DNA of 32,000 bases from Candidatus Korarchaeum cryptofilum OPF8 (lineage in GTDB: Archaea > Korarchaeota > Korarchaeia > Korarchaeales > Korarchaeaceae). The DNA lies in NCBI RefSeq assembly GCF_000019605.1, contig NC_010482.1:600001-632000 (forward strand), in the 5' to 3' direction. Positions 1,786 through 24,430 of the stretch are shown piece by piece; the stretch's first letter is position 1, and the number at the start of each line of letters is the position of its first letter. The position numbers were made by a program, and so were the translations under genes. Below the pieces are notes generated by a model. It was given only the letters and a program-made list of their open reading frames with translations. It searched no databases and was not told where the DNA came from.

Positions 1786-1836
1786 AAGAGGTCTCGGACT
1801 CGCTGAATCTATCCTTAAAAAATTTTTTGATACATC

Positions 1837-2070: not shown

Positions 2071-2146
2071 GGGATCACCTCAACGAATAACAGCTTCGAT
2101 AATTAAAATTTTTCCATGGAAAGTCCCCGGCTGAAGTTATGGAACA

Positions 2147-2156
2147 TTTATATTAT
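2147..2156 (+). promoter_or_regulatory. TATA-like box (TTTATATTAT) about 24 nt upstream of ATG 2175
   Basis: A/T-rich box at the spacing expected for a leaderless archaeal mRNA. A second A/T box at 2101-2113 could instead serve ATG 2139. Confidence 0.4.
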
Positions 2157-2174
2157 TTCGCTGCCATTCAGCTC

Positions 2175-3218
2175 ATGCTCAGCAAGAACCCCATAGAGCT
2201 CCCGGAGGGGAGGAAGTTCTCCAAGGATGAGATAGCCCAGGCCCTCAGGCTCGGCATAATAGCTGAGCTAGATGCCATAAATCTCTACCTGCAGTTAGCT
2301 AAGGGCATAGATGATGAGGCAGCTAAGAGGGTCTTTGAGGATATAGCTAAGGAGGAGAAGACCCACGTTGGAGAGTTCCTGGCTTTATTGAAGAGTTTGG
2401 ATGAGGAGCAAGTCTTGGAGCTAGTTAAGGGCGCTGAAGAAGTTTCTAAGCTCACCGGAATAAAGGTGGAGGATCCATCTAGTCCTAGAGAGGATTCTGA
2501 GGGCTGGGAGGAGCTTCAGAATTTAGTCAAGGATTACGCTAATTCTATCAGGAGGGTCAGGCCCAGTCTTCCTGTGACTTCCCTGGGCAGGGGGATCGAT
2601 GCAGTGCCAGTCGAGGAGGTATCCTTAGATGGGAGCATAAAATCGAGGAGGTACATAGTACAACTGAGGGAGATATCCCAGACTTTTGAGATAGCTCAAG
2701 CCTCCCTAGATTATTCGAAATCCATAGGGAAGCTCGAGGTACCTCAGGCCCTTACTGCAGCGAGCAAGCTGATTTTCGAGGAGGAGAAAACAATTTTAGA
2801 TGGAATAAAGGAGAAAGCAGGGATGAAGATGGGAATATCTTCTTGGGATGAGCCCGGATCCGCTGTCAATGAGGTCGCATCAGCCCTATCCAAACTACTC
2901 TCCAACGGGTTCCCCGGGCCCTTTCTACTGTTCCTCAGCCCCTCTAGATACGCGAAATTAGTCTCAGTCCATGAGAGGACCGGTATAATGGAACTTCAGA
3001 GGCTCAAGGCCCTGATAAAGGATGTGATAGCCTCTCCAGCTATCGGTGATGAGGAAGCAGTTCTAATATCATCGAATCAGCAGGTGCTGGACGTAGCCAT
3101 AGGCGCGGATACGGTCCTGGATTACATAGGGCCCATAGATGGATCTCACGCTTTCAGGCTTTGGGAGACTCTAGCAGTCAGGGTGAAGGATCCTAGGGGC
3201 ATTGTTTTAATGAGATGA
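2175..3218 (+). CDS. Family-1 encapsulin shell protein with N-terminal fused ferritin-like (rubrerythrin-like) cargo domain
   Basis: The N-terminus MLSKNP...LRLGIIAELDAINLYLQLA...AKEEKTHVGEF is a ferritin-like four-helix ExxH signature. The C-terminal ~245 aa (GRGIDAVPVEEV...PFLLFLSPSRYAKL...VLDVAIGADTVLDYIGP...LWETLAVRVKDP) resembles the linocin-M18/encapsulin HK97 fold. The architecture matches the Pyrococcus furiosus virus-like-particle protein. The ORF track starts at 2139; I prefer ATG 2175 by comparison with that family. Confidence 0.85.
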   Translation: MLSKNPIELPEGRKFSKDEIAQALRLGIIAELDAINLYLQLAKGIDDEAAKRVFEDIAKEEKTHVGEFLALLKSLDEEQVLELVKGAEEVSKLTGIKVEDPSSPREDSEGWEELQNLVKDYANSIRRVRPSLPVTSLGRGIDAVPVEEVSLDGSIKSRRYIVQLREISQTFEIAQASLDYSKSIGKLEVPQALTAASKLIFEEEKTILDGIKEKAGMKMGISSWDEPGSAVNEVASALSKLLSNGFPGPFLLFLSPSRYAKLVSVHERTGIMELQRLKALIKDVIASPAIGDEEAVLISSNQQVLDVAIGADTVLDYIGPIDGSHAFRLWETLAVRVKDPRGIVLMR

Positions 3219-3509
3219 GGGAGTGGGGGCCATAGTCCGCCTTCTGTACTGGGGGGATTTGGCTAAGCGCCTACCTCCCGCTCGCCCCAGCCCCTCATAG
3301 CGGGAATCGGCTTGCACGCCGCCGGGGCCCCGTTTCACCGGTCCCTCGGGGATTCTCAGCCTCACCGGCATCATCGTCATCCCCCCGAGGACGTGTCGTT
3401 TCTGTGGGCCTTCCCACCCCTCTCGAGGTGCCTCCTTGCGGAGGGGCGGCGCTGGGGGCGTGGGCGGACCTTCCCCAGCTCGAAGCCGTAACCCCCGGCC
3501 CCCTCTCCC
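3219..3509 (-). ncRNA. rnpB: RNase P RNA, archaeal type A
   Basis: Read on the minus strand it shows a P1 pairing (5' GGGAGAGGGGGCC with 3' GGCCCCCACUCCC) and a CR-I-like GGGGAAGGUCCGCCCAC. It also has CCCACAGAAA, GGUGAAACGGGG and a CR-V-like GUACAGAAGGCGGACUAUGG. The P4 strands GGUCCG and CGGACU are complementary. The region is conspicuously G+C-rich with no credible ORF. Confidence 0.85.
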
Positions 3510-3530
3510 ATGATAGAGGAATCACTCATA

Positions 3531-3540
3531 TTAAAAATTA
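3531..3540 (-). promoter_or_regulatory. TATA-like box (minus strand TAATTTTTAA) about 25 nt upstream of the RNase P RNA 5' end
   Basis: Spacing to the predicted P1 5' end at about 3509. It overlaps the stop codon of the upstream HTH gene. Confidence 0.45.
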
Positions 3541-3909
3541 CTTGAATATCTCCGGGCATATATTACAGCTGCGGTCGATCCCATCGATTGAACGATGGAA
3601 CTCGCAAAGGAGCTTCCTCGATAGTAGCTCGGATGCTATCTTATAGATGCTGAAATTTATGCTCACCCTCTCCCCAGCTATTATCGACTCAGCCAGCTCA
3701 TCAGTGAGCTTCGATACCTCTTCCAAATCCTCGAGCCTCAATAAGGCTCCTCTCTTCATATTAAGGTATCTTGAGACGTTTGAAACCGAAATCCCTAAAA
3801 TTTCCGCTATTTCAACCTCCAGAAGGCCCCTCTTCCTCAAGTTCATTACTAGGAGCCTGTAGAGGCCGGGGATTAGGTACCTATCAGCTAAGAAGAAGGG
3901 GCTCTTCAT
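3538..3909 (-). CDS. Helix-turn-helix transcriptional regulator (COG2522-like)
   Basis: HTH segment EVEIAEILGISVSNVSRYLNMKRG; C-terminal Cys-containing tail. It abuts the upstream DUF438 gene (stop/start adjacent), suggesting an operon. Confidence 0.7.
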   Translation of the reverse strand: MKSPFFLADRYLIPGLYRLLVMNLRKRGLLEVEIAEILGISVSNVSRYLNMKRGALLRLEDLEEVSKLTDELAESIIAGERVSINFSIYKIASELLSRKLLCEFHRSIDGIDRSCNICPEIFK

Positions 3910-5184
3910 TCAGAGCACCACTATCCTCTTCTTTATTTCCTCAGGATTCTCCAATATTTCCGTGAGGTCCTCAACTATCTCCAGAGTACCCAGATATTTC
4001 CCCTCATCGTCCCTGATGCCAGCTACTATCACCCTCACTATCCTGTCCCCGACCCTAGTCCAGAACTCCCTGTGGGGGAACTCCCCTTCCTTTATCTTCT
4101 TGACGTTGAGCATCACGTAACCCTCCAACCTGGGCGGGTGGCAGAAGTTCAATCTCCTCCCTATTATAGTCTTAGTCCTCACGAAGCCCGATCTCATGGA
4201 GGATTCAGTGTAGAACCTGACTCTATCATTCTCATCGGCGAAAGTTAGCTCGATGGGCAAGTTCCTCAGGATCCTCTCCAGTTCCTTGACGCTCAAGAAA
4301 CCAGTTTCCATCTCAATATCCCCTTCCTTCCTTATCTCATATTCATCGGGAGTCGCTGATGAAGCTAGATTCCTGAACTCCATGGGCAGCGTCGATAAAT
4401 CCTTAACCTCCGGTACCAATTGATACGGATAGATGGGCTCGGCTTCAGGTGACCACTTCCCCAGCTCAACTCCCATATCCCCGAGGATCTCATATATCGC
4501 TGCCCACTCCCCCTCTGAGAATAGAGTCCAGCAAGCTGGGTAAAGTATCTTATTCTCCCTGAACACAAGATCTATGATCTCCTTCGATATTTCCTCGGAG
4601 AGGGAGGCTACTTTTTCCTTAGCATCTTCTTTCCCACTCTTAAACTCATCTAAAGCTTCTCTCAATTCCCTCATCTTCACTATGATTTGATCCTCCCTCC
4701 CCCAGAGGACCCTTGGGACTGCTGTTATCCCTCTCCTCTCTAAATAGGGGAATATCAGCATCTGATTCTTCCTGTAATGGGATCTCAGCTTCCTCAACTC
4801 ACCTAAGAGCTCCTCTATGGAATTAAGGACATCGCTTCCCTCCTTCAGAGCTCTAGCATACAGCCCCAGGGCCTCAGCGTCCTTGAGTAGCTCATCGTTC
4901 TCCCTCATGAGAATATCTAGCGGATGCCCCTCTGGGACCCCCTTAAGCTCTCTTTTAGCTAGAGAATCCCTGAAGAGTGCTACATGCAGATCGCAGAGGC
5001 TCAGTATCTCCCTTACACTTATCCCCTCCTTGACGAGCTCTTGTTCTATCAGAGGGATCTCAAATGGTGATATATCAGATAATAAATCACCATATTTCTC
5101 CTTAAGCTCCTCAACACTAGATCCGCTGTGGAGGAGCTTTATCGCATTCTTCAAGAGCTCCTTCCTCTCATCGAAACTACTCAT
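3910..5184 (-). CDS. DUF438 / hemerythrin-like / PAS-domain sensor protein
   Basis: N-terminus MSSFDERKELLKNAIKLLHSG...ISPFEIPLIEQELVKEGISVREILSLCDLHVALFRD is DUF438-like. A central HHE/hemerythrin-like helical part follows, then a C-terminal PAS-like part (ELTFADENDRVRFYT...IGRRLNFCHPP). The track's GTG start at 5214 lies inside the TATA box, so ATG 5184 is preferred. Confidence 0.75.
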   Translation of the reverse strand: MSSFDERKELLKNAIKLLHSGSSVEELKEKYGDLLSDISPFEIPLIEQELVKEGISVREILSLCDLHVALFRDSLAKRELKGVPEGHPLDILMRENDELLKDAEALGLYARALKEGSDVLNSIEELLGELRKLRSHYRKNQMLIFPYLERRGITAVPRVLWGREDQIIVKMRELREALDEFKSGKEDAKEKVASLSEEISKEIIDLVFRENKILYPACWTLFSEGEWAAIYEILGDMGVELGKWSPEAEPIYPYQLVPEVKDLSTLPMEFRNLASSATPDEYEIRKEGDIEMETGFLSVKELERILRNLPIELTFADENDRVRFYTESSMRSGFVRTKTIIGRRLNFCHPPRLEGYVMLNVKKIKEGEFPHREFWTRVGDRIVRVIVAGIRDDEGKYLGTLEIVEDLTEILENPEEIKKRIVVL

Positions 5185-5213: not shown

Positions 5214-5223
5214 CTTTATAAAT
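5214..5223 (-). promoter_or_regulatory. TATA-like box (minus strand ATTTATAAAG) for the DUF438-HTH operon
   Basis: About 30 nt upstream of ATG 5184. Confidence 0.4.
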
Positions 5224-5239: not shown

Positions 5240-5270
5240 CGCTTATTAAATAAAATAGTTTTACAGGATC

Positions 5271-5299
5271 ATCATCAATATTTGAAAATTATCATCAAT
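5271..5299. repeat. Direct repeat ATCATCAAT x2, 20-bp period, just upstream of the 5303 TATA box
   Basis: Copies at 5271-5279 and 5291-5299. The spacing is about two helical turns. Confidence 0.55.
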
Positions 5300-5302
5300 C
5301 TA

Positions 5303-5310
5303 TTTATAAA
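5303..5310 (+). promoter_or_regulatory. TATA-like box (TTTATAAA) about 23 nt upstream of ATG 5329
   Basis: Spacing fits a leaderless transcript for the 5329-7877 gene pair. Confidence 0.45.
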
Positions 5311-5328
5311 GATTATTGTATTGACGCT

Positions 5329-6102
5329 ATGAAAGAGCATCATAGCTCGACTGAGCATGGTAAACTTTTTCAGTTATCGCTGGGCCTATGGAGGATGCCC
5401 GGAAGTAACTTCTACCCTTTGCCCCTCAAGAACCTCTACAAGCTCGCTACATCCATGAGGGAGCTCGATGTCAACAGCATAATGTCCCTACTGAAGGTCA
5501 GTAAGAGGAAAGCTGAACAGTACGAGAAAACCTTGAACTGGATTTTGGGAAGAGTTAAAGATGCGAAATCCATGGATGAGTTCTTTGAAAGGGTAGCGGA
5601 AGCTCTCCTGAGCGAATATAAGCTGGATAAGGCCTTCGCCCTCCTGATGGATAGGAGCATTCCCCTCTCCCCATCGAGCCTCTCGTCAGCGATCAGGGGG
5701 AACGGCATGAATATCAACGATACTGAGGCAAAAGCCATAATCTCATGGCTCAAGGAAGGCGGATTCCTAAAGGAGAGGAGAGTCCCTATCTTAGCCCTCT
5801 CCTTAGAGGAGAGAGTGCTCGAAGATATAAGGAGCAGGGGCTCCTTGACATACTCAAGCCTCAGGAAGGTCTATGGTGATTCTGCGAGGAGAATAATATT
5901 CTCCTTATGGAAGAAGGGCCTCGTGAATGTCCCATCCTTCGAGAAGTACAGGAAATTGCTTGAGAGCGTCGAGGATATCGATAGGATACCTGGAAACGTT
6001 TCAGGGAAGGTATTCTCGACCTGGCAGGATAGGATAAGCGGAGAAGTTTACAGCGAGCTCGTGATACCTCTGAGGGAGAGGATATCGGCAAGGTGGCATT
6101 GA
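5329..6102 (+). CDS. Hypothetical helical protein with wHTH-like segments (257 aa), partner of the downstream ATPase
   Basis: Long ORF with host codon usage. Segments such as AKAIISWLKEGGFLKERR and LEDIRSRGSLTYSSLRKVYGDSARRIIFSLWKKGLV look winged-helix-like. No catalytic motif. Its stop TGA (6100-6102) overlaps ATG 6102 of the next gene. Confidence 0.6.
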   Translation: MKEHHSSTEHGKLFQLSLGLWRMPGSNFYPLPLKNLYKLATSMRELDVNSIMSLLKVSKRKAEQYEKTLNWILGRVKDAKSMDEFFERVAEALLSEYKLDKAFALLMDRSIPLSPSSLSSAIRGNGMNINDTEAKAIISWLKEGGFLKERRVPILALSLEERVLEDIRSRGSLTYSSLRKVYGDSARRIIFSLWKKGLVNVPSFEKYRKLLESVEDIDRIPGNVSGKVFSTWQDRISGEVYSELVIPLRERISARWH

Positions 6103-7877
6103 TGAGCCTCGAACACTGGGAGGAGATAAGGCAAATTTATGAGAGCTTCAGGAAGCTTGAGAGCTCTTCTATAAGATCGATACTCGAATTATGGTCGGAT
6201 AGGAGGCCCTTAGAAATCAAGCTGAGCTTAATGCATGAGATATTGGTGAACTCGAAGCGCCTGAAGGAGACTATGGAAAGCATAATCAGGTACTTGAGTG
6301 AGAGGGAGTGGAGGGGAGCTATAATAAGCATAGTTGGAGAATATGGATCAGGGAAGACTCAATTTGGCCATATTCTCCTGAGAAGGCTGAGGGAAGAGGG
6401 AGTATTCTCGAAGATAATAACGATAAGTCCTATGAAGGATGTTAGGGAGCTGCTCCTTGAGGAGCTGAGTGATGAGGGGCCCACCGTCCTCATAATAGAT
6501 GAGATAGATCAGCTCCTGGACGAGTTCGAGAGGGGGGAGAGGAGGGATATCGAATACCTAGCTGATCTGATCAGGGGAATAACTGAGGGAAGCTACGGGA
6601 ACCCTCCCAGGGGATCCGTGATAATGCTGCTATCCAAGAGGGCTAGCGATACTATGAAGAGGGATAGAGCCCTGGGGAGCAGGCTAATGGACAGATCCAG
6701 GGAGTTCAGTCTCTCAATGAGCGATGATGAGAGGGAGAGAGCTAGCAAAGAGGCATTAAAGAAGATAATTGCCCTCTGGCTGGCCTATTTTGAGCAAAAC
6801 GATGATATGAGGTATGCTATAAAGAGATCGCTTGATAAGATATATCCTTTCATGGAGAGGTTCGCCTCAGAGCTCTCGAGGACTAGGGAGATAGGTGGCG
6901 TTGTTAAGGGCCTCACAGATCTCTCATCAGAGATAATTAAAAATTTGGGAAGATTCGAGGATATGGGAAGGATAGAGGAGGGGAGATTCGCTGAGGATCT
7001 CCTGAAGAAGTTCTTATTGAGCGAGGTGAGGAACATAAAGTTGGAGGTGAGGATAGGGGACGTCACCAAGGATTACATAGCTGTATTCTCCGATGAGCCC
7101 CTCAGCGTTCCAGGGGCGAGGACGGATGCTCATTTCGATGTTTGGACCTTCGATCCCAGGTTAGGGATGAGGGGGGATGTGCTCGTATCTAGAGTCGGAA
7201 TCGAGATAAAATATGGCGAATACTGGAAGGAGAGGTGCGATCAGCTCCTCAAGATCATGGAGAAGTACCCCCTTCTTCTGATATCGATAGCTGATATAGA
7301 CCCGGATGATATAACGGAGATGAGGATTAAGATGGGCATGGGGTTCGATATCGTGAATTTGAAGCCAGATCTCTTCAGGACCCTTCAAGTGCTAAAGGAA
7401 GAAGCTGCTATGAGTTTCCTGGGGAAGTACTCGACGCTCAGGAGGGACCTGAAGGAGGCCCTGGAGAACCTAATGAGGCTCGCTGTTAAGGTCAAGGAGG
7501 AAGTCAGTGAGCAGGATATTCTATCAGAAGCCTCTGTCAACGTCTTAAGCTCCGTTTTAAGGGAGTTGAGGGGAGCTAAAAGCTCCAAGAGATATGAGAC
7601 TCTCTCGAAACTCATAGCCAGGGCTATAGAGGATACCTTCAGGAAGCACGGAGCTAGCCCTCCGTCCCTCTCGAGTAACGTGATCCTAGGGATAGTTAAA
7701 ATACTTGAGAGGGAGGGAATGGGGAGGATAAGCCAGAGCGGGAAGAGCTTCAACATAGATAAAGATTGCAGGCTCAGGATAGAGGAGATAGAGCAGGATA
7801 TGGAGAGAAGGAGGAGGATAGAGAGGGTGATATTCGATACCATATCGAAGCCCCTGGGTGCCACTCTTGAGCTCTGA
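6102..7877 (+). CDS. AAA+/P-loop ATPase with internal PD-(D/E)xK-like nuclease signature and C-terminal wHTH-like region
   Basis: Walker A GEYGSGKT (6336-6359). Walker B VLIIDEID (6486-6509). A D...ExK pattern occurs in TDAHFDVW...(20 aa)...VGIEIKYG (7125-7211). The C-terminal segment NVILGIVKILEREGMGRISQSGKSF is wHTH-like. The track start GTG 6093 is also possible. Confidence 0.7.
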   Translation: MSLEHWEEIRQIYESFRKLESSSIRSILELWSDRRPLEIKLSLMHEILVNSKRLKETMESIIRYLSEREWRGAIISIVGEYGSGKTQFGHILLRRLREEGVFSKIITISPMKDVRELLLEELSDEGPTVLIIDEIDQLLDEFERGERRDIEYLADLIRGITEGSYGNPPRGSVIMLLSKRASDTMKRDRALGSRLMDRSREFSLSMSDDERERASKEALKKIIALWLAYFEQNDDMRYAIKRSLDKIYPFMERFASELSRTREIGGVVKGLTDLSSEIIKNLGRFEDMGRIEEGRFAEDLLKKFLLSEVRNIKLEVRIGDVTKDYIAVFSDEPLSVPGARTDAHFDVWTFDPRLGMRGDVLVSRVGIEIKYGEYWKERCDQLLKIMEKYPLLLISIADIDPDDITEMRIKMGMGFDIVNLKPDLFRTLQVLKEEAAMSFLGKYSTLRRDLKEALENLMRLAVKVKEEVSEQDILSEASVNVLSSVLRELRGAKSSKRYETLSKLIARAIEDTFRKHGASPPSLSSNVILGIVKILEREGMGRISQSGKSFNIDKDCRLRIEEIEQDMERRRRIERVIFDTISKPLGATLEL

Positions 7878-9171: not shown

Positions 9172-9374
9172 GCTAGAAGAAAAAGCGTGAAGATGCTGCA
9201 TCTTCCCGGGGCTATTCTCAATCGACCGGTTGCCTGAGGGAGACGAGTTTAGGCATCTACTAAATCAACTATAATATCCCAAATTTTTTCCACTAGTCCG
9301 GTGTGGTACAAAATTTTTGGAAACGAATCCATCCTCTCATGGCCCCTTAACTCATAATCTTACCGTAAAACTTT

Positions 9375-9384
9375 TTTTATTAAG
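9375..9384 (+). promoter_or_regulatory. TATA-like box (TTTTTATTAA) about 22 nt upstream of ATG 9401
   Basis: Supports ATG 9401 rather than the track's 9317 start. Confidence 0.45.
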
Positions 9385-9400: not shown

Positions 9401-10165
9401 ATGAGTTCCTATCCCCAGATCTCATTATCCGGTAAGGTGGCCCTAATTACAGGAGGCTCCTCCGGCATAGGGAGGGCTATAGCCCTCAAGCTCTCCCAGG
9501 CGGGGGCTAAAATAGCTATTTTGGACATAAAGGAATGTGAAAGCCTGCTGAATGAGATAGGGAGGGATAAGGCTAGATTTTACAGGTGCGATGTCACATC
9601 AGCCGATGAAGTCAGGGAAGTCGTTAGGAGTGTTTATGAGGAATTCGGCAGGATAGATATTGTTGTAAATGCTGCTGGTGTCATAGTCAGGAAGGATGCC
9701 GTTGAAACCAGTGAGGAGGAGTGGGATAAGGTCTTGAACGTCAACCTGAAGGGTCCCTTCCTGGTCTCGAAATACTCGATACCTTACATGATCAGGGGAG
9801 GGGGTGGCAGCATAGTCAACGTAGCCTCGGGGTGGGGGCTGAAGGGAGGCCCCAAGGCAGTGGCTTACTGCGCCTCCAAGGGAGGCCTAATCAACATGAC
9901 TAGGGCCATGGCCATAGATCACGGTAAGGATGGGATAAGGGTCAACTGCGTCGCTCCAGGGGATGTGGATACCCCTATGCTCAGGAGCGAGGCCGAGCAG
10001 CTCGGTATGAAATGGGAGGATTTCCTGAGGGAGGCCGCTAACAGGCCCCTAGCTAGGATAGGGAAGCCTGAGGATATAGCTAATGCTGTCCTCTTCTTAG
10101 TGAGCGATATGGCCAGTTGGATAACTGGAGCTACTTTAGTAGTGGATGGAGGTGGTACTGCATGA
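9401..10165 (+). CDS. Short-chain dehydrogenase/reductase (SDR) family oxidoreductase
   Basis: TGGSSGIGRA cofactor motif, NAAG, catalytic S...YCASK and a PGDVDTPM segment. Confidence 0.9.
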   Translation: MSSYPQISLSGKVALITGGSSGIGRAIALKLSQAGAKIAILDIKECESLLNEIGRDKARFYRCDVTSADEVREVVRSVYEEFGRIDIVVNAAGVIVRKDAVETSEEEWDKVLNVNLKGPFLVSKYSIPYMIRGGGGSIVNVASGWGLKGGPKAVAYCASKGGLINMTRAMAIDHGKDGIRVNCVAPGDVDTPMLRSEAEQLGMKWEDFLREAANRPLARIGKPEDIANAVLFLVSDMASWITGATLVVDGGGTA

Positions 10166-15089: not shown

Positions 15090-16460
15090 TCAGCCCTTCT
15101 CCTTTCCCCTGATCCTCCTCAGCTCCATCATGTACTCCCTCTTGAGCTTCACATAGACGCCTTCAGGTATCTCCCCTCTCCTTCTCATCTCCTCCAGCTT
15201 CGATATCTTCTCCCTTATCCTCTTAACTCTCTCATCCGATGGCTTCTTTTTCCTCCTGTATTTGAGCAGGAGGTAGAATGTAGTGAGCCCGAATATCACA
15301 GCCAGGGATATGCTGAGGATCGTGATCATGTAGAGGGGATTCAGAGTCCTCTCCCACTTCGCTAAAGCTACCTTCGGCTTATCCATCAGTATTGGATCCG
15401 ATATTAGTGAGCTCCCGTTCGCATCCCCTCCCCATCCCTTGAAGACGTAGATCCAGGGGAATTCCTCTATCTTATCTGTCTTGAGCTTCGCCCTCGCGTA
15501 GCTCCCAGCATCGTACCATCCTGAGCCCTCCGCCTCCCCCAGCTCGGATGTGACGTTCAGGTAGTACTGGACCCTGTACTCAGCCACATAGGAGCTTGGC
15601 TCCGCTCTAACTGAGATGGAAGTCGAGTTGCTCATGCCCCTCCATCCCCTGAAGATGTACCTCCTCCCATCCTCAGTCCTCTGGGCATCAGCGGACAGGC
15701 TGTGAATACTCCCCTCCTCCCATTCGAAATCCCCTCCTCCGGGATAGGCCTTCCCATCAACGTAGACAGTCAATCCCGGTGGATCCGTCCTCACGCTCAC
15801 TTTCAACGGACCTTTCGCGACTTCCACATCTATCCAATCGCTTGAGGATCCGGAGAAATCCTTATTCCCACTCCAGAGAGCTCTGAACCTCCAAGTCCCG
15901 CTCACGTTCAGGAGGAGAGATCGGGAGAAGTTCCCATTCTCGACGATAAGCGTCAAGTTCCTCCTAGCTCCATCCGGACTCACTACTTCGAGGCTCAGAT
16001 TAGCTCTCTCAGGTTTCATGGAGCCGAATAACGTGATCTCCTCCCCTACCCTCACTTTCCTCGGGGAAGCGTTCAAGTATATCTGCGAGGCCCCTCTGGT
16101 GACGTTCACCTTGACATCGCCCTTAGCCAGTAGAGTGGTCCCGCAGTACAACTCGACCCTGAAGGTATGGATCCCCGCTCTATCGGCGCTGAAGGTCCTC
16201 CTGATACCCATGGGTCCAGGGGCTTTCAGGGGATCCCCGTATCCCTCAGCCGGATATCTGACTACCTCCCCGCTCGGGTAAGTCCTGTAGATGACCACAT
16301 GATACTCCTTGCAGCCGGTATCTCCCCAGAGGATGTTCAGCTCTATCTCCTCTCCAGCCCCAACGGATCCCTTGGATGCCCATACTTTCAGATCCTCAGC
16401 TGAGGCTGCTTGAACAACTATCAAGAGCACCAAGAGGATCAGCAATTCCTTCCTTCTCAT
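15090..16460 (-). CDS. Secreted, membrane-anchored protein with Ig-like/B-repeat-like ectodomain and SHOCT-like cytoplasmic tail
   Basis: Signal peptide MRRKELLILLVLLIVVQAASA and repeated beta-rich segments (FRGWRG..., FKGWGGDANGS). A C-terminal TM helix is followed by RRGEIPEGVYVKLKREYMMEL. Confidence 0.6.
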   Translation of the reverse strand: MRRKELLILLVLLIVVQAASAEDLKVWASKGSVGAGEEIELNILWGDTGCKEYHVVIYRTYPSGEVVRYPAEGYGDPLKAPGPMGIRRTFSADRAGIHTFRVELYCGTTLLAKGDVKVNVTRGASQIYLNASPRKVRVGEEITLFGSMKPERANLSLEVVSPDGARRNLTLIVENGNFSRSLLLNVSGTWRFRALWSGNKDFSGSSSDWIDVEVAKGPLKVSVRTDPPGLTVYVDGKAYPGGGDFEWEEGSIHSLSADAQRTEDGRRYIFRGWRGMSNSTSISVRAEPSSYVAEYRVQYYLNVTSELGEAEGSGWYDAGSYARAKLKTDKIEEFPWIYVFKGWGGDANGSSLISDPILMDKPKVALAKWERTLNPLYMITILSISLAVIFGLTTFYLLLKYRRKKKPSDERVKRIREKISKLEEMRRRGEIPEGVYVKLKREYMMELRRIRGKEKG

Positions 16461-16558: not shown

Positions 16559-17893
16559 ATGAGCAAAGCTGTGAGGATGAGATACGATAGAGGCACTATA
16601 TTAGTGGAGGGCCTCGATAAACTGCCTCACTGTAGATGGGATGGGAGGGTAGGGGCCTTAAGGGCTCCGGCCTTCAGGTACCCAGAGATAAAGGAGCTCC
16701 TCCCCCATGCTATAGATGAGGTCATGGACCCCCTGCCCATGCCAGAGGTTAGGGGGAGGATTGAGCTCAAGCCCTTTCAGATGGAAGCATTCAATTCCTG
16801 GATTGAGAAGGGAAGAGGGATAATAGTGCTGCCCACAGGGGCTGGGAAGACTTACATAGCTCTGAAGGCCATAGAGAGGCTGAGGAAGAGCACCCTCATA
16901 ATAGTACCGACGATACCCCTCCTGAATCAGTGGAGCGATCTCTTGACTAAGCTGGGGATAGAGGCCGGTATCATAGGAGGAGGTAAATCTGAGCTGAGGC
17001 CAGTTACCGTTATAACTTACGATTCAGCTTACCTGAGATCGGATGAGCTCGGGAATAAGTTCGAACTCGTCGTGTTCGATGAGGTCCATCATCTGGCTGC
17101 GGCTGGATATATAGAGATAGGTGAATCCCTGGCCTCCCCATACAGGATGGGGCTCACAGCTACCCTGGAGAGGGAGGACGGGAGGCACAGCTTACTCTTC
17201 CCAATAGTGGGGGGAGTGGTCTACAGGATCGGGCCCAAGGAACTAGCTGGTACTCATCTCTCGGAGTTCGATACAGTAAGGATAGGGGTTGAGCTGAGCG
17301 AGGAGGAGAGGGCCGAATATGATAAATGCCTGAGGGAGTATAGGGAAGCTCTCAGGGATCTCAAGCTCAGGATCACGGGGATGGAGGACTTCATGAAATT
17401 GATAAGGATGAGCTCCTCGAATCCAACAGCTAGGAAGGCCCTACTCGCTTGGCACAGGATGAGGAAGATAGCCCTTAACTCCAGATCGAAACTGGATACC
17501 CTTCAAAGCCTCCTGGAGAGCCATAAGGATGATAAGGTCATAATATTCACGGAGTTCAACGAGATGGCTGAGGAGATAAGCAGGAGGTTCCTGATACCAC
17601 TGATAACACATAGGACGGATAAGAAGGAGAGGAAGGAGGTTCTGGATGCCTTCAGAGTTGGCTCCGTGACGAAGATAGTCACATCCAAGGTGCTGGATGA
17701 GGGCTTGGACGTACCCGATGCGAGGGTGGGGATAATACTCGGAGGCACTGGGAGCAGGAGGGAGTTCGTGCAGAGGCTAGGGAGGATACTGAGGAAGAGG
17801 GAGGGGAAGAGGGCCGTGCTATATGAAGTAATATCGAGGGGGACCAGCGAGGTCAGGGTATCGAGAAGGAGGAGGAAGGCGCTGCAGCGGTGA
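16559..17893 (+). CDS. xpb: XPB/Rad25-type SF2 DNA helicase
   Basis: N-terminal damage-recognition-like domain (YDRGTILVEG...). Motif I LPTGAGKT, motif II DEVHH. RED motif in TATLEREDG (17171-17179). Motif VI QRLGRILR. Confidence 0.9.
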   Translation: MSKAVRMRYDRGTILVEGLDKLPHCRWDGRVGALRAPAFRYPEIKELLPHAIDEVMDPLPMPEVRGRIELKPFQMEAFNSWIEKGRGIIVLPTGAGKTYIALKAIERLRKSTLIIVPTIPLLNQWSDLLTKLGIEAGIIGGGKSELRPVTVITYDSAYLRSDELGNKFELVVFDEVHHLAAAGYIEIGESLASPYRMGLTATLEREDGRHSLLFPIVGGVVYRIGPKELAGTHLSEFDTVRIGVELSEEERAEYDKCLREYREALRDLKLRITGMEDFMKLIRMSSSNPTARKALLAWHRMRKIALNSRSKLDTLQSLLESHKDDKVIIFTEFNEMAEEISRRFLIPLITHRTDKKERKEVLDAFRVGSVTKIVTSKVLDEGLDVPDARVGIILGGTGSRREFVQRLGRILRKREGKRAVLYEVISRGTSEVRVSRRRRKALQR

Positions 17894-17897
17894 TGCG

Positions 17898-19403
17898 ATG
17901 CTCCCATCTCAACTGCTGAGGGGCAAGGTGGTCGGAGGTAAGCTCATATTAAAGTGGGCCTTGGGCAGCGAGCTGGAGCTGGCGGAGGATCTCATAAGGA
18001 TCTTCAAGGTGGGGAGGGAGCTGAAGGAGATAGAAGAGGAAGAAGAGGAGATAGAAGAATATTATTCAGATTACAAGCTCGTGAGGGGTCTATACATCCT
18101 TTTGCTGAGGAAGGGGAGATTTGAGAGACCTAAGAGCTCTCTAGATCCTCTGGAAGCTAGGAGGAGGGTTTACAGGATCGTGAATCGGGATTATCATGGC
18201 TTCGTCAGTTATGAGGAGAGGGCTGATGCAATAAGGAGGGCTGCTGAGGAAATAGGAGTCAATGAGGAGGAGCTGGAGAGAGCATTATGGGCTGATTTTG
18301 AGTTGAAGCTCGTCGAATTCAATGCGCCTGAACCGGAGGAGCTACTGAAGGAGTACAACTTAGCCCTGCTCCAGACAGCTCTGTTCAAATCCTCGAGGAT
18401 GCATCTACTCACCTCCTCCTCGGGAGGGGAGGTCAAGCCCCTGCTCAGGGCCCTCAAGGGCCTGGGCCTGATGTACACGGCTAGCAGGAGGGATAAGCTG
18501 GAGCTCACGATAGATGGTCCAGCGTCGATACTCAAGCTGACGACGAAGTACGGAGTGGCTATGGCTAAGCTAGTCCCCTTCATAGTGAGGATGAGCGATT
18601 GGTATCTGAGGGCCGATATAGTGAGGAGGAAGATTGTAAGGCTGGAGGTCTCCCACAGAATGAGGGATATATTTCCAGAGTACGAGGGGGGCATAGATTA
18701 TGATAGCTCCCTGGAGAGGGAGTTCCCGCAGATGTGCCCGCAGGGATGGAAGGTATATAGGGAACCGGAGCCCCTGGTATCCGGAAGCTCCGTAATAATA
18801 CCTGATTTCATGCTGGAGAAGGGGAGGATCAGGATATATGTGGAGATAATGGGCTTCTGGACCCCTGAGTACGTCGAGAGGAAGATAGAGAAACTGAAGG
18901 ATGTGAAGGAGCCCCTCCTGATAATAGCAAGGAGGGATCTGATGTGCTCCAGGGTTGAGAAGATCAGGAAGGATATCCTTTACTTCGAGAGGAAAATAGA
19001 TCCCGTGGAGCTCGCTAGGAAGCTCAAGGAGATAGAGGAGAGATACTGGTCCGATGAGAGGGATAGGATAAGGGAGGAGCTAGCTGAATTGAGGATAGAT
19101 GGCAAGTTCCTAGAGGTAGATAAACTTAAATCCATTCTGGGGATAAGTGAAGCTCAACTCAGGGAGATCTGCTGCCCGGAGGGCTTCGAGCTGATAGGGA
19201 GCTATCTGATATCTGAGGAGGCAATCTCATCCCTGAGGGAGGAGGTTATGAAGAGGAGGCCATTGAAGGTCCGGGAGCTGAAGGGCATATTAGCTGATAT
19301 GGGGCTCCCTCCTGAAATAGCTACATACGTCCCCGGGAGGATCGGGATCGGGGTATCTTGGAGCTCCCTGGATGAGGATGAAGCCTATCTGGTATACACT
19401 TGA
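17898..19403 (+). CDS. bax1: Bax1 (DUF790) endonuclease, XPB partner
   Basis: N-terminus MLPSQLLRGKVVGGKLI is typical of DUF790. It sits 4 nt after the xpb stop, the canonical archaeal XPB-Bax1 arrangement. Nuclease-like segment IPDFMLEKG...VEIMGFWTPEY. Confidence 0.8.
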   Translation: MLPSQLLRGKVVGGKLILKWALGSELELAEDLIRIFKVGRELKEIEEEEEEIEEYYSDYKLVRGLYILLLRKGRFERPKSSLDPLEARRRVYRIVNRDYHGFVSYEERADAIRRAAEEIGVNEEELERALWADFELKLVEFNAPEPEELLKEYNLALLQTALFKSSRMHLLTSSSGGEVKPLLRALKGLGLMYTASRRDKLELTIDGPASILKLTTKYGVAMAKLVPFIVRMSDWYLRADIVRRKIVRLEVSHRMRDIFPEYEGGIDYDSSLEREFPQMCPQGWKVYREPEPLVSGSSVIIPDFMLEKGRIRIYVEIMGFWTPEYVERKIEKLKDVKEPLLIIARRDLMCSRVEKIRKDILYFERKIDPVELARKLKEIEERYWSDERDRIREELAELRIDGKFLEVDKLKSILGISEAQLREICCPEGFELIGSYLISEEAISSLREEVMKRRPLKVRELKGILADMGLPPEIATYVPGRIGIGVSWSSLDEDEAYLVYT

Positions 19404-23093: not shown

Positions 23094-24430
23094 GAGGGGT
23101 TCCCGGATAGTTGACTTTATATACTCTGTGTGTATACTCTACTTGTGGAAGTCTATCTAGGGGTCCCCTTCGGCTACGAACCCAACGCTGAGCTCAAAAA
23201 ACTTCTAGAGGACTTCAGGGACATGGTAAACTTCTGCATAGATTATGCCTACAAAAGAAGGATAACATCTTATGCTAAGCTGAGGGGAGGAGTTTATGAA
23301 GAGTGGAAGAGGAGATGGGATTACTCAACTCATTATTGCCACTCAGCTTGTAAGATAGCTCTAGCTATGCTCAAGAAACACAGGAAGAATAAAAAGGAAG
23401 GGAAACCCGAGGCCAGGAAGTTATTCATGCAGCTGGATCCCCAGCTCTATAGGTTCTACGGAGATAAGATCAGGATATCTGTTAGGCCGAGGCAGTTCCT
23501 GTTCATATATCTGAGATTCGGGGAATATCAGAGGAAGTTCATTGATGCTTGGAGGGAGGGGAAGCTCAAGACTGGTGAGATAACTGTGAATGAGGATAAA
23601 ATTATTATTCCCTTTAAGAGGGAAGTAGATCTTCAGAATCCCTCGGACTGGATAGCCATCGATATAAATGAATCCAATGTAACGGCAGTTAGCTCTAACC
23701 CTCACGTTTTAAGAATAGAGCATGAGCTTAGAACAGTACATACGACTTACTTCATCATAAGGAGGAGAATACAGAAGCTCGCCAGATATAAGCCGAAGAC
23801 CGCTGAAAGGCTCCTGAGGAAGTACTCCGATAGGGAGAAGAATAAAACTAAGGATATATGCCACAAGATATCGAAGCTAATAGTGGAATTCTCCAAGGAA
23901 TATGGCTTCGGAATATTGATGGAGGATCTAAAAGGAATAAGGAAACGCATAAAAAGGGGGAGGAGGATGAACAGGAGGCTTCATTCATGGAACTTCAGGA
24001 GGCTTCAATTCTACATAGAATATAAGGCTAAATTGAACGGATTGCCTGTCGAGTATGTCAATCCGAGGGGGACCTCGAGCCTGTGCCCGGTATGTGGGGG
24101 GAGATTAGCTCCGAATGGGCACAGGCTTCTAAAATGCCCGCGTTGCGGTTACGAGAATGATAGGGACTTGATCGCGGGCATTAATATGCTCAGGATGAGG
24201 GGAGCCCCGTTGCCCCTGAAAGCCATCAATGAGGATAGCAACAGAGCTATCCGAGATGGAACGGGTAGTAAATGTTAACTACCCGACAACGGTAGTCATA
24301 ACGGGGGCTGCGAGCGGTATAGGCCTAGCCGCAGCTCTAGCCTCGAGAGGATTAGCTCTCAATCCCATCTGGATATCGATAGTGCTGGGCCTCCAGCTTG
24401 GAGCGGTGACTCCGATAACTTGACTAATGA
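23094..24430 (+). mobile_element. IS200/IS605-family (IS1341-like) element remnant carrying tnpB only; ends not determinable
   Basis: TnpB ORF without an adjacent TnpA. Direct repeat TATACTCT x2 (23120-23127 and 23133-23140) at the 5' side and nested hairpins at the 3' side. The boundaries are approximate guesses. Confidence 0.35.
23130..24278 (+). CDS. tnpB: TnpB / OrfB RNA-guided endonuclease-like transposon protein
   Basis: Split RuvC residues in WIAIDINESN (D), GILMEDLKGI (E) and NDRDLIAGINM (D). Zinc ribbon CPVCGG...CPRCGY (24084-24146). Confidence 0.9.
   Translation: MYTLLVEVYLGVPFGYEPNAELKKLLEDFRDMVNFCIDYAYKRRITSYAKLRGGVYEEWKRRWDYSTHYCHSACKIALAMLKKHRKNKKEGKPEARKLFMQLDPQLYRFYGDKIRISVRPRQFLFIYLRFGEYQRKFIDAWREGKLKTGEITVNEDKIIIPFKREVDLQNPSDWIAIDINESNVTAVSSNPHVLRIEHELRTVHTTYFIIRRRIQKLARYKPKTAERLLRKYSDREKNKTKDICHKISKLIVEFSKEYGFGILMEDLKGIRKRIKRGRRMNRRLHSWNFRRLQFYIEYKAKLNGLPVEYVNPRGTSSLCPVCGGRLAPNGHRLLKCPRCGYENDRDLIAGINMLRMRGAPLPLKAINEDSNRAIRDGTGSKC

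Follow-up and report, generated by a model that had tools for sequence, protein, structure and literature searches.

A 32,000-nucleotide stretch of Candidatus Korarchaeum cryptofilum OPF8 (contig NC_010482.1, positions 600,001 to 632,000 of the forward strand, hereafter the window) carries two adjacent genes, termed here A and B. Their operon is genuine and conserved in Korarchaeum and a small number of other archaea, and it matches no described family. Source databases label their products only as 'hypothetical protein' or generic 'ATP-binding protein', and literature searches returned no description of the pair. Protein B combines an AAA+ ATPase resembling the Orc1/Cdc6 initiators with a putative PD-(D/E)xK nuclease domain, and its partner A is predicted to contain two winged helices. 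Together they probably constitute a two-subunit, ATP-gated DNA endonuclease, and we lean towards the fuller view that this enzyme serves DNA surveillance or defense. The proposal is built on the coupling of the two genes, their adjacency, the domain order of B, its ORC-like AAA+ fold, the conservation of its residues and the fast evolution of the pair relative to its neighbors; from these we infer the A-B complex, its DNA substrate, the ATP control of cleavage and the defensive role.

Distribution of the family and linkage of A and B

Word-seeded searches retrieved 27 B clusters and 18-21 A clusters. Among the minority that bear a name, the informative ones are all Korarchaeal (Candidatus Korarchaeum or Korarchaeota), and one cluster has only the broader label Thermoproteota. 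An exhaustive hidden Markov model (HMM) search of 1.84 billion representatives matched 57 clusters at E ≤0.001 and 34 at E ≤1e-10, most of them 560-650 amino acids long and aligned along most of the profile. A genome scan identified a distant clade in Candidatus Wolframiiraptor, two Thermofilaceae, an uncultured archaeon and one Promethearchaeati (Asgard) genome; outside Korarchaeia, the family is thus represented only in patches.

Profile models of A and B were run against all fetched loci to assess linkage. In 18/18 distinct loci, from Korarchaeia, Thermofilaceae, Wolframiiraptor, an uncultured archaeon and an Asgard genome, B is immediately preceded on its own strand by an A homolog that overlaps or abuts it, and this holds even where A and B are each only ~20% identical. 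At the distant locus L003, the upstream gene is likewise homologous to A (hhalign, 99.3% probability). An earlier note on this DNA had read the two genes as a candidate two-gene module, and the consistent adjacency of their homologs agrees with that reading.

A remote B-like branch (P0083, P0089, P0091 and P0096; loci L025-L029) comprises proteins of 630-690 amino acids that carry GEYGQGKSQ, FDEVDK, GxxxE, SDGHF and VEIKY motifs and give weak, sub-threshold matches to PF01637 or AAA_16. Small SLFN_AlbA_2, Smr and zinc-finger genes are found nearby at L027 and L028/L029 of this branch. The metagenome matches L022-L024 were rejected as family members, being P-loop false positives. In the metagenomic relative L018 (89% identity), the B gene (2805-4603) is split into two open reading frames (ORFs) near 3917-3938, which makes it either a pseudogene or the product of an assembly error.

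Protein B is predicted to have an Orc1/Cdc6-like AAA+ scaffold

Structurally, protein B is predicted to be an ORC/Cdc6-like AAA+ protein in which the usual succession of core, lid and winged helix is interrupted, ahead of the winged helix, by an additional domain. The AlphaFold2 (AF2) model, based on 19 homologs, has a mean predicted local distance difference test score (pLDDT) of 89.4 and a predicted template modeling score (pTM) of 0.86, and its domain borders are given in Table 1 (B residue numbers are counted from ATG 6102). The P-loop ATPase recognized in the earlier note corresponds to the AAA+ core, for which ORC1, ORC4 and Cdc6 are the nearest solved structures: in a Foldseek search against the PDB, the human and Drosophila proteins come first (3e-6 to 1e-4, probability 1.0), and further matches are RuvB and a clamp loader (both probability 1.0), other clamp loaders, p97-type ATPases and the Avs5 STAND protein EfAvs5. 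The winged helix-turn-helix-like segment suspected at the C-terminus likewise appears in the model, as a winged helix, and the N-terminal helical domain carries a conserved W31-x-x-R-R-P.

B has all the features by which AAA+ proteins are recognized: the core with its lid, both Walker motifs (A and B) and, after sensor 1, an arginine. Walker A reads G79-x-x-GSGK85-T-Q (GEYGSGKT at 6336-6359) and Walker B follows the hhhhDExD pattern (VLIIDEID at 6486-6509, with D133, E134 and D136), both at exactly the coordinates given in the earlier note. S178 ends strand 4 and is a sensor-1 candidate; it is followed by DRALGSR194LMDR198, in which a box VII-like SRL includes R194. A DE(I/V)D Walker B together with an SRL motif is typical of Orc1/Cdc6 proteins. 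In an alignment of 30 family members, with identity to window B down to 16%, seven columns are invariant (the start Met, K85, Q87, D133, D136, E298 and D342), and E134, R194, E368 and Q381 are nearly so.

Profile and structure searches place B in no well-characterized family, and its Pfam, NCBIfam, PADLOC and PDB sequence matches are confined to the P-loop region. The Pfam AAA model matches window B at 7.4e-5 (23.6 bits vs a cut-off of 21.2) and 25/30 family members; other weak matches at P-loop level are AAA_22 (below its cut-off), KAP, BrxC/D, nSTAND3 and TniB. A Cdc6/ORC-specific family model gave no match for B, only generic AAA and the sub-cut-off AAA_22 being returned. The NCBIfam scan yielded nothing meaningful, and a PDB sequence-profile search with full-length B returned P-loop matches or noise only. 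The best PADLOC match is mad8 (2.5e-4, residues 75-233), followed by weaker matches to PifA, BrxD and SspC over a short stretch around the P-loop, with the remainder above E 0.01. Among PHROGs, B matches a DnaC-like loader (4.7e-5) and a clamp loader.

A putative PD-(D/E)xK domain lies between lid and winged helix

Residues 286-430 of B very probably adopt a PD-(D/E)xK nuclease fold, a view that draws on predicted topology and on motifs. The AF2 model shows, over residues 290-420, a helix (290-307), four strands (311-318, 321-330, 343-351 and 356-371), a helix (374-386), a strand (391-396), a helix (401-411) and a final strand (415-420), with pLDDT mostly 86-95. This is the element order of the alpha-beta-beta-beta-alpha-beta restriction-endonuclease core, read from the prediction and not from a superposition on a solved nuclease, which counts against the assignment. 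The D...ExK signature that the earlier note had called nuclease-like falls within this predicted domain, with its residues at canonical positions: G294xxxE298 in helix 1, D342 just ahead of core strand 2, E368-I-K370 in core strand 3, and Q381 in the helix that follows. The span 7125-7211 assigned to the signature reads DAHFDVW...VGIEIK; its first residue is the Asp, not the Thr quoted one codon earlier, and its last is the Lys before the quoted YG, so this pair of borders, unlike those of the Walker motifs, was slightly off.

The candidate catalytic residues are conserved throughout the family. E298 and D342 are each found in 30/30 members, E368 in 29/30 and Q381 in 28/30; an aromatic residue occupies D342 +3 in 28/30, and Phe or Tyr occupies Q381 +4 in 22/30. 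The family-wide motifs are therefore GxxxE, DxxY/F, ExK/T and QLxxF/Y, the window protein having Q381-LxxI at the last of these. We take the Q-x-x-x-F/Y pattern to recall motif IV of RecB/Cas4-type nucleases. The position of K370 is Lys in 14/30 members and Thr in 15/30, and a Lys at position -3 relative to the conserved Gln is present in 14/15 ExT members vs 1/13 ExK members (Fisher p = 8e-6, a value that overstates independence because the ExT members may be one clade reflecting one ancestral event, and that speaks less strongly for a nuclease than it appears to). The active-site lysine thus looks relocated in the ExT members, as is known to occur in the PD-(D/E)xK superfamily. One family member, P0080, keeps D342 and E298 but has lost both the ExK and the conserved Gln, and may represent an inactivated copy. 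Foldseek searches with full-length B against PDB and BFVD gave AAA+ matches only in the top 50 and are not informative on this domain, because the AAA+ matches dominate.

Protein A is predicted to contain tandem winged helices

In its AF2 model (pLDDT 88.8), A is a helical protein in which two winged-helix units stand out clearly, at approximately residues 93-133 and 137-178, in keeping with the several wHTH-like helices that the earlier note saw in it. It ends in a three-stranded beta-meander (residues 207-232), which contains the most conserved motif of the protein, F-x-x-W-Q-D-R-x-S/T-G-E...E-L-V-I-P...A-R-W. No credible family match was found in Pfam, NCBIfam, PADLOC or PHROGs, and PDB sequence-profile searches across the A, B and nuclease-domain queries gave P-loop matches or noise only. 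Foldseek returned no significant match for A (best ScaR, E 0.03, TM ~0.2); the weak fold matches (ScaR/MntR repressors, ScpB, Rpc82 and MarR) are consistent with tandem winged helices and nothing beyond.

Gene borders, coupling and promoter

Both long ORFs are present as the earlier note described them, with one correction. It had started gene A at 5329, 66 nt too far upstream: all database homologs are 235-241 amino acids long and begin MP/R-x-S-x-F-Y-P, which matches the N-terminus read from ATG 5395 (MPGSNFYPL...), and in relatives at ~89% protein identity the 5329-equivalent ATG is out of frame (indels totaling 5 nt before the conserved ATG). The start at 5329 was rejected on these grounds, and ATG 5395 is the most likely start. 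For gene B, database gene calls of 591 amino acids at 100% identity start at ATG 6102, although GTG 6093 could also serve; for both proteins, the top database matches are 99-100% identical. The overlap of TGA 6100-6102 with ATG 6102-6104 is confirmed (one shared base, TGATG) and implies translational coupling of A and B. At other loci, the A/B junction is a 4-nt ATGA or a longer overlap.

The promoter-like element AAACTTTTTCAG is kept in position and sequence in six Korarchaeal loci and is identical in four close relatives. The motif AAACTTTTTYW, which it contains, occurs 6 times in the window vs 0.88 expected (Table 1); one copy lies ~23-33 nt 5' of the probable internal start of a short-chain dehydrogenase/reductase (SDR) gene (ATG near 9401), and a copy on the minus strand precedes the gene divergent from gene A. 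Since the motif also stands ahead of other genes in the window, AAACTTTTTCAG appears to be the general promoter consensus of the organism and not specific to the module. AAACTTTTTYW resembles a Korarchaeal BRE/TATA consensus, which would imply that many transcripts are leaderless. The distance of AAACTTTTTCAG from ATG 5395 fits a leaderless mRNA beginning there rather than at 5329, so the leaderless-type promoter of the earlier note was right in kind, but its placement shared the 66-nt upstream shift. GGAGG at 5390-5394 was rejected as a ribosome-binding site, as it abuts the ATG.

The divergent intergenic region upstream of gene A contains a perfect 10-nt inverted pair, CTTTATAAAT / ATTTATAAAG, at 5214-5223 / 5302-5311, and, at 5254-5297, a 21-nt unit ending ATCATCA in two direct copies with 23 nt spacing. 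The inverted pair and the direct copies could be operator or second-promoter elements. The TTTATA part is conserved only in part among close relatives.

At the other end of the operon, the major facilitator superfamily (MFS) gene, with its start at GTG 7858 or TTG 7867, does overlap gene B, which stops at 7877, as had been noticed. An MFS gene also lies directly 3' of B in L013 but is absent downstream of B in L001, L002, L014 and L015; being confined at this position to the window lineage and L013, it was rejected as a third component and is treated as a neighbor of the module.

Table 1. Features of the A-B module and other features located in the window (positions count from the first nucleotide of the window)
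Feature	Position	Strand	Remarks
Gene A	5395..6102	+	235 amino acids; start from homologs, AF2 model
Gene B	6102..7877	+	591 amino acids; AAA+ ATPase, nuclease-like and winged-helix parts
Stop/start overlap TGATG, gene A/gene B	6100..6104	+	
Promoter-like element AAACTTTTTCAG, BRE/TATA-type	5362..5373	+	22-33 nt 5' of gene A ATG
AAACTTTTTYW copies	5362-5372; 9368-9378; 5251-5261 (minus); 1816-1826 (minus)		
N-terminal helical domain of B	6102..6302	+	B residues 1-67
AAA+ core and helical lid of B	6303..6956	+	B residues 68-285 (core 68-205, lid 206-285)
PD-(D/E)xK-like nuclease domain of B	6957..7391	+	B residues 286-430; mixed alpha/beta
Helical linker, C-terminal winged helix (LEREGMGRISQSGKSF wing region) and terminal helix of B	7392..7874	+	B residues 431-591
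Encapsulin shell protein (Linocin_M18)	2139-3218	+	N-terminal rubrerythrin-like fusion; near module in L013 too
Archaeal RNase P RNA (Rfam RF00373)	3221-3507	minus	175.6 bits, full length; between encapsulin-rubrerythrin and HTH genes
ORFs of 213 and 456 amino acids	14363-15004 and 15090-16460	minus	no Pfam match at E 1e-5
XPB helicase and Bax1 (DUF790) nuclease	16559-17893 and 17898-19403	+	9 kb downstream of module
ORF with Cas12f1-like TNB domain	23130-24278	+	1e-20; TnpB-type transposon-associated nuclease

Genomic neighborhood and evolutionary rate

In the window, the upstream neighbors of the pair are TatC, a methyltransferase, an encapsulin-rubrerythrin fusion, RNase P RNA, a helix-turn-helix (HTH) protein and a DUF438-hemerythrin-PAS protein, and the downstream neighbors are the MFS gene, the SDR gene, two glycine-cleavage P subunits and NAD kinase. 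Locus L013 (B 49% identical) keeps the downstream order A-B-MFS-encapsulin-SDR-GcvP1-GcvP2-NADK, and L002 and L014 have in common a different conserved context. The upstream flank is variable across loci and often contains VapBC, HEPN-MNT, PF01637 ATPases or HerA-NurA. Type III CRISPR genes lie near the module in L003, and a type IIG restriction-modification gene in L001. Classical archaeal ATPases occur a few kb upstream in three unrelated loci (L012 17-1033, L013 197-1264 and L015 4524-5615), one of them a DUF234-containing fragment and two of them PF01637 proteins; in L013, this ATPase is grouped with HerA-NurA and HEPN-MNT. In L004, a transposase adjoins the module.

Comparison of the window with L013 shows that A and B have the lowest identity of eight syntenic genes, with 58% for A and 49% for B vs 81-89% for GcvP1, GcvP2, SDR and NAD kinase. 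Within B, conservation is highest in the ATPase core and lowest in the N-terminal domain and the C-terminal winged helix.

Elsewhere in the window, several spurious ORFs of the ORF list overlap the RNase P RNA. The XPB helicase and Bax1 listed in Table 1 are a known archaeal repair-type helicase-nuclease couple.

Proposed mechanism and alternative explanations

In the proposed mechanism, B would be an Orc1/Cdc6-type protein carrying a PD-(D/E)xK (RecB-like QxxxY/F) domain between its lid and winged helix, and A would be a separate winged-helix subunit, made in fixed proportion to B through the stop/start coupling. A would dock onto B via its conserved C-terminal beta-meander and most likely supply or modulate DNA or target recognition, or else act as a regulator. 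ATP bound at the subunit interfaces (K85, D133/E134 and R194, the last a candidate arginine finger) would drive the assembly of B on DNA, and this assembly would license cutting by the E298/D342/E368/K370 site. The role of such an enzyme would most likely be DNA surveillance or restriction, a defense-type function now fixed in the Korarchaeum chromosome.

A conflict-type role is favored by the fast evolution of the pair, its variable recognition-type ends, its patchy spread and its variable upstream flank rich in toxin-antitoxin genes. Several observations pull the other way. The window context consists of housekeeping or unrelated genes, and the downstream order kept in L013 indicates that in Korarchaeum the pair has been passed on vertically and has kept its site, unlike most defense systems. 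VapBC-type neighbors prove little, because they are abundant in thermophilic archaea. PADLOC-DB 2.0 gave no full-length match to any system component for B (and none at all for A), and a scan of IMG/VR viral contigs with two alignments found no relatives. The two-subunit model itself is weakened in that A is not universally required, since no A homolog lies within 6 kb of B in the one locus of the remote branch with long flanks. Vertical inheritance, housekeeping context, absence from viral contigs and the lack of a defense-model match would rather favor DNA maintenance, in which the same complex would act in lineage-specific housekeeping, its ATPase recognizing stalled forks, recombination intermediates or damaged DNA and its nuclease cutting them. 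The proximity of the XPB-Bax1 repair pair and the HerA-NurA genes that adjoin the module in L013 would suit such a role, as would the catalytic set E, D, ExK, which equals that of the archaeal junction resolvase Hjc. A core repair factor would, however, be expected to be more broadly distributed and slower-evolving than this family, whose two genes are the fastest-evolving of the eight syntenic ones, which is very rare (57 clusters in 1.84 billion representatives) and which is patchy outside Korarchaeia. A housekeeping role is, on balance, rather unlikely, and if the pair is indeed an ATP-gated endonuclease, defense or surveillance is the more probable use of it.

Two further explanations set the enzyme model itself aside. 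The pair could be a remnant or domesticated replication-maintenance module of an integrated element, with B as an Orc1/Cdc6-type initiator and A as its partner, the pair acting at a specific DNA site and not as a general nuclease. The ORC/Cdc6-like fold with its DExD Walker B and SRL motif, the PHROG match to a DnaC-like loader (4.7e-5), the winged-helix partner and the transposase beside the module in L004 are all in line with this, but an initiator has no need of the nuclease catalytic residues, which are invariant; moreover, no integrase, repeats or other element genes accompany the pair, its flanks differ among loci, it is on no viral contigs and its chromosomal position in Korarchaeum is stable, which together leave this origin very improbable. 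Alternatively, the D...ExK domain could be non-catalytic, serving in DNA binding or oligomerization, and the pair an ATP-dependent transcription or chromatin regulator. Here belong, and count also against the endonuclease model, the failures to match any nuclease family by sequence: Pfam searches on 21 excised nuclease-like domains at E up to 10 found none, a PDB profile search with the excised domain gave spurious designed-repeat matches only, and hhalign gave 0.5% probability for this domain against a DUF234 domain. The loss of ExK and Gln in P0080 and the abundance of winged-helix domains in both proteins point in the same direction. Yet at an overall identity of 16-20%, no member lacks E298 or D342 and very few lack E368 or Q381, and the lysine is kept or apparently relocated, a pattern that argues for an active site rather than a scaffold; a purely regulatory pair is equally improbable. 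The ATP-gated endonuclease therefore stays the preferred account of A and B.

A more far-reaching version of it is conceivable, if doubtful: an Orc1/Cdc6-type ATPase turned into an endonuclease by a RecB-like insertion may, with its winged-helix partner, represent a previously unrecognized archaeal surveillance or immune system, fixed in Korarchaeia and sporadically spread to other Thermoproteati and to Asgard archaea.

Much less is known of defense and DNA maintenance in archaea than in bacteria, and most archaeal AAA+-nuclease fusions (DUF234, DUF4143) have never been studied by experiment. The A-B pair offers a clean, testable design of an ORC-like switch, a putative nuclease site and a winged-helix partner, small enough for biochemistry and structure determination. 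Should it restrict foreign DNA, an ORC-derived branch would be added to prokaryotic immunity; should it act in repair, it would be a lineage-specific factor of a deep-branching archaeal class. With either role, domain-level annotation of both proteins is now possible.

Comparison with known systems

The Orc1/Cdc6 initiators are the best structural matches of B and have the same layout of AAA+ core, lid and C-terminal winged helix, as well as the DE(I/V)D Walker B and the SRL-type box VII. B differs from them in the 145-residue nuclease-like domain inserted before the winged helix, the extra N-terminal helical domain, the lack of a significant Cdc6-family HMM match, its fast evolution and its partner protein.

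Fusions of AAA+ ATPases to nuclease-type domains have precedents. Both DUF234 and DUF4143 are counted among the PD-(D/E)xK families in PMC3424549, the former as joined to an AAA+ ATPase and the latter as of unknown function. Like B, the PF01637 (ATPase_2, 'Arch_ATPase')-DUF234 (PF03008) proteins of COG1672 combine an archaeal ORC/Cdc6-related AAA+ domain, a winged helix and a restriction-endonuclease-fold domain, and like B they are uncharacterized; genes of this type lie near the module in L012, L013 and L015, and the remote branch of the B family matches PF01637 weakly. PF01637 and PF03008, however, gave no match to window B even at E=1, nor to any of the 30 members. The position of the nuclease also differs, as DUF234 is C-terminal, whereas the corresponding domain of B sits between lid and winged helix. 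B is ~130-230 amino acids longer than the PF01637-DUF234 proteins and has an obligate partner gene.

COG1373, which unites AAA_14 (PF13173) with DUF4143 (PF13635), has the domain order ATPase, PD-(D/E)xK-like domain and small C-terminal DNA-binding region, as in B. At sequence level, PF13635 never matched, and PF13173 was matched weakly by 2/30 members (7.4e-4). COG1373 proteins are encoded by single genes of ~400 amino acids and are widespread in bacteria and archaea, in contrast to the B family, which is rare, archaeal and paired with gene A.

McrBC is, like A-B, a two-gene combination of AAA+ NTPase, PD-(D/E)xK nuclease and DNA recognition, in which NTP-driven assembly licenses cleavage, as is proposed here for A-B. 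The parts are distributed differently: in McrBC, the nuclease (McrC) is a subunit of its own and the motor carries the DNA reader, whereas in A-B the motor carries the putative nuclease and the candidate reader is the separate subunit. No McrB or McrC family is among the Pfam or PADLOC matches. STAND/Avs-type NTPases share with B the combination of an NTPase switch and a nuclease; some B members weakly match Pfam nSTAND3 or nSTAND_NTPase5, and EfAvs5 is among the fold matches. These matches are nevertheless confined to the P-loop region, B lacks a repeat-type sensor domain, and its R194 is what an AAA+ interface, and not a STAND switch, would lead one to expect.

The claim of the earlier note that the arrangement corresponds to no named system holds insofar as no named family or defense system matches, but the arrangement is less unprecedented than it implied, given the DUF234 and DUF4143 fusions. 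Fusions of AAA+, PD-(D/E)xK and winged-helix domains are already known as uncharacterized families (COG1672 and COG1373). What sets A-B apart, for which the COG1672 and COG1373 sequence tests failed, is the insertion of the predicted nuclease between the lid and winged helix of an ORC-like scaffold, together with an obligate winged-helix partner gene.

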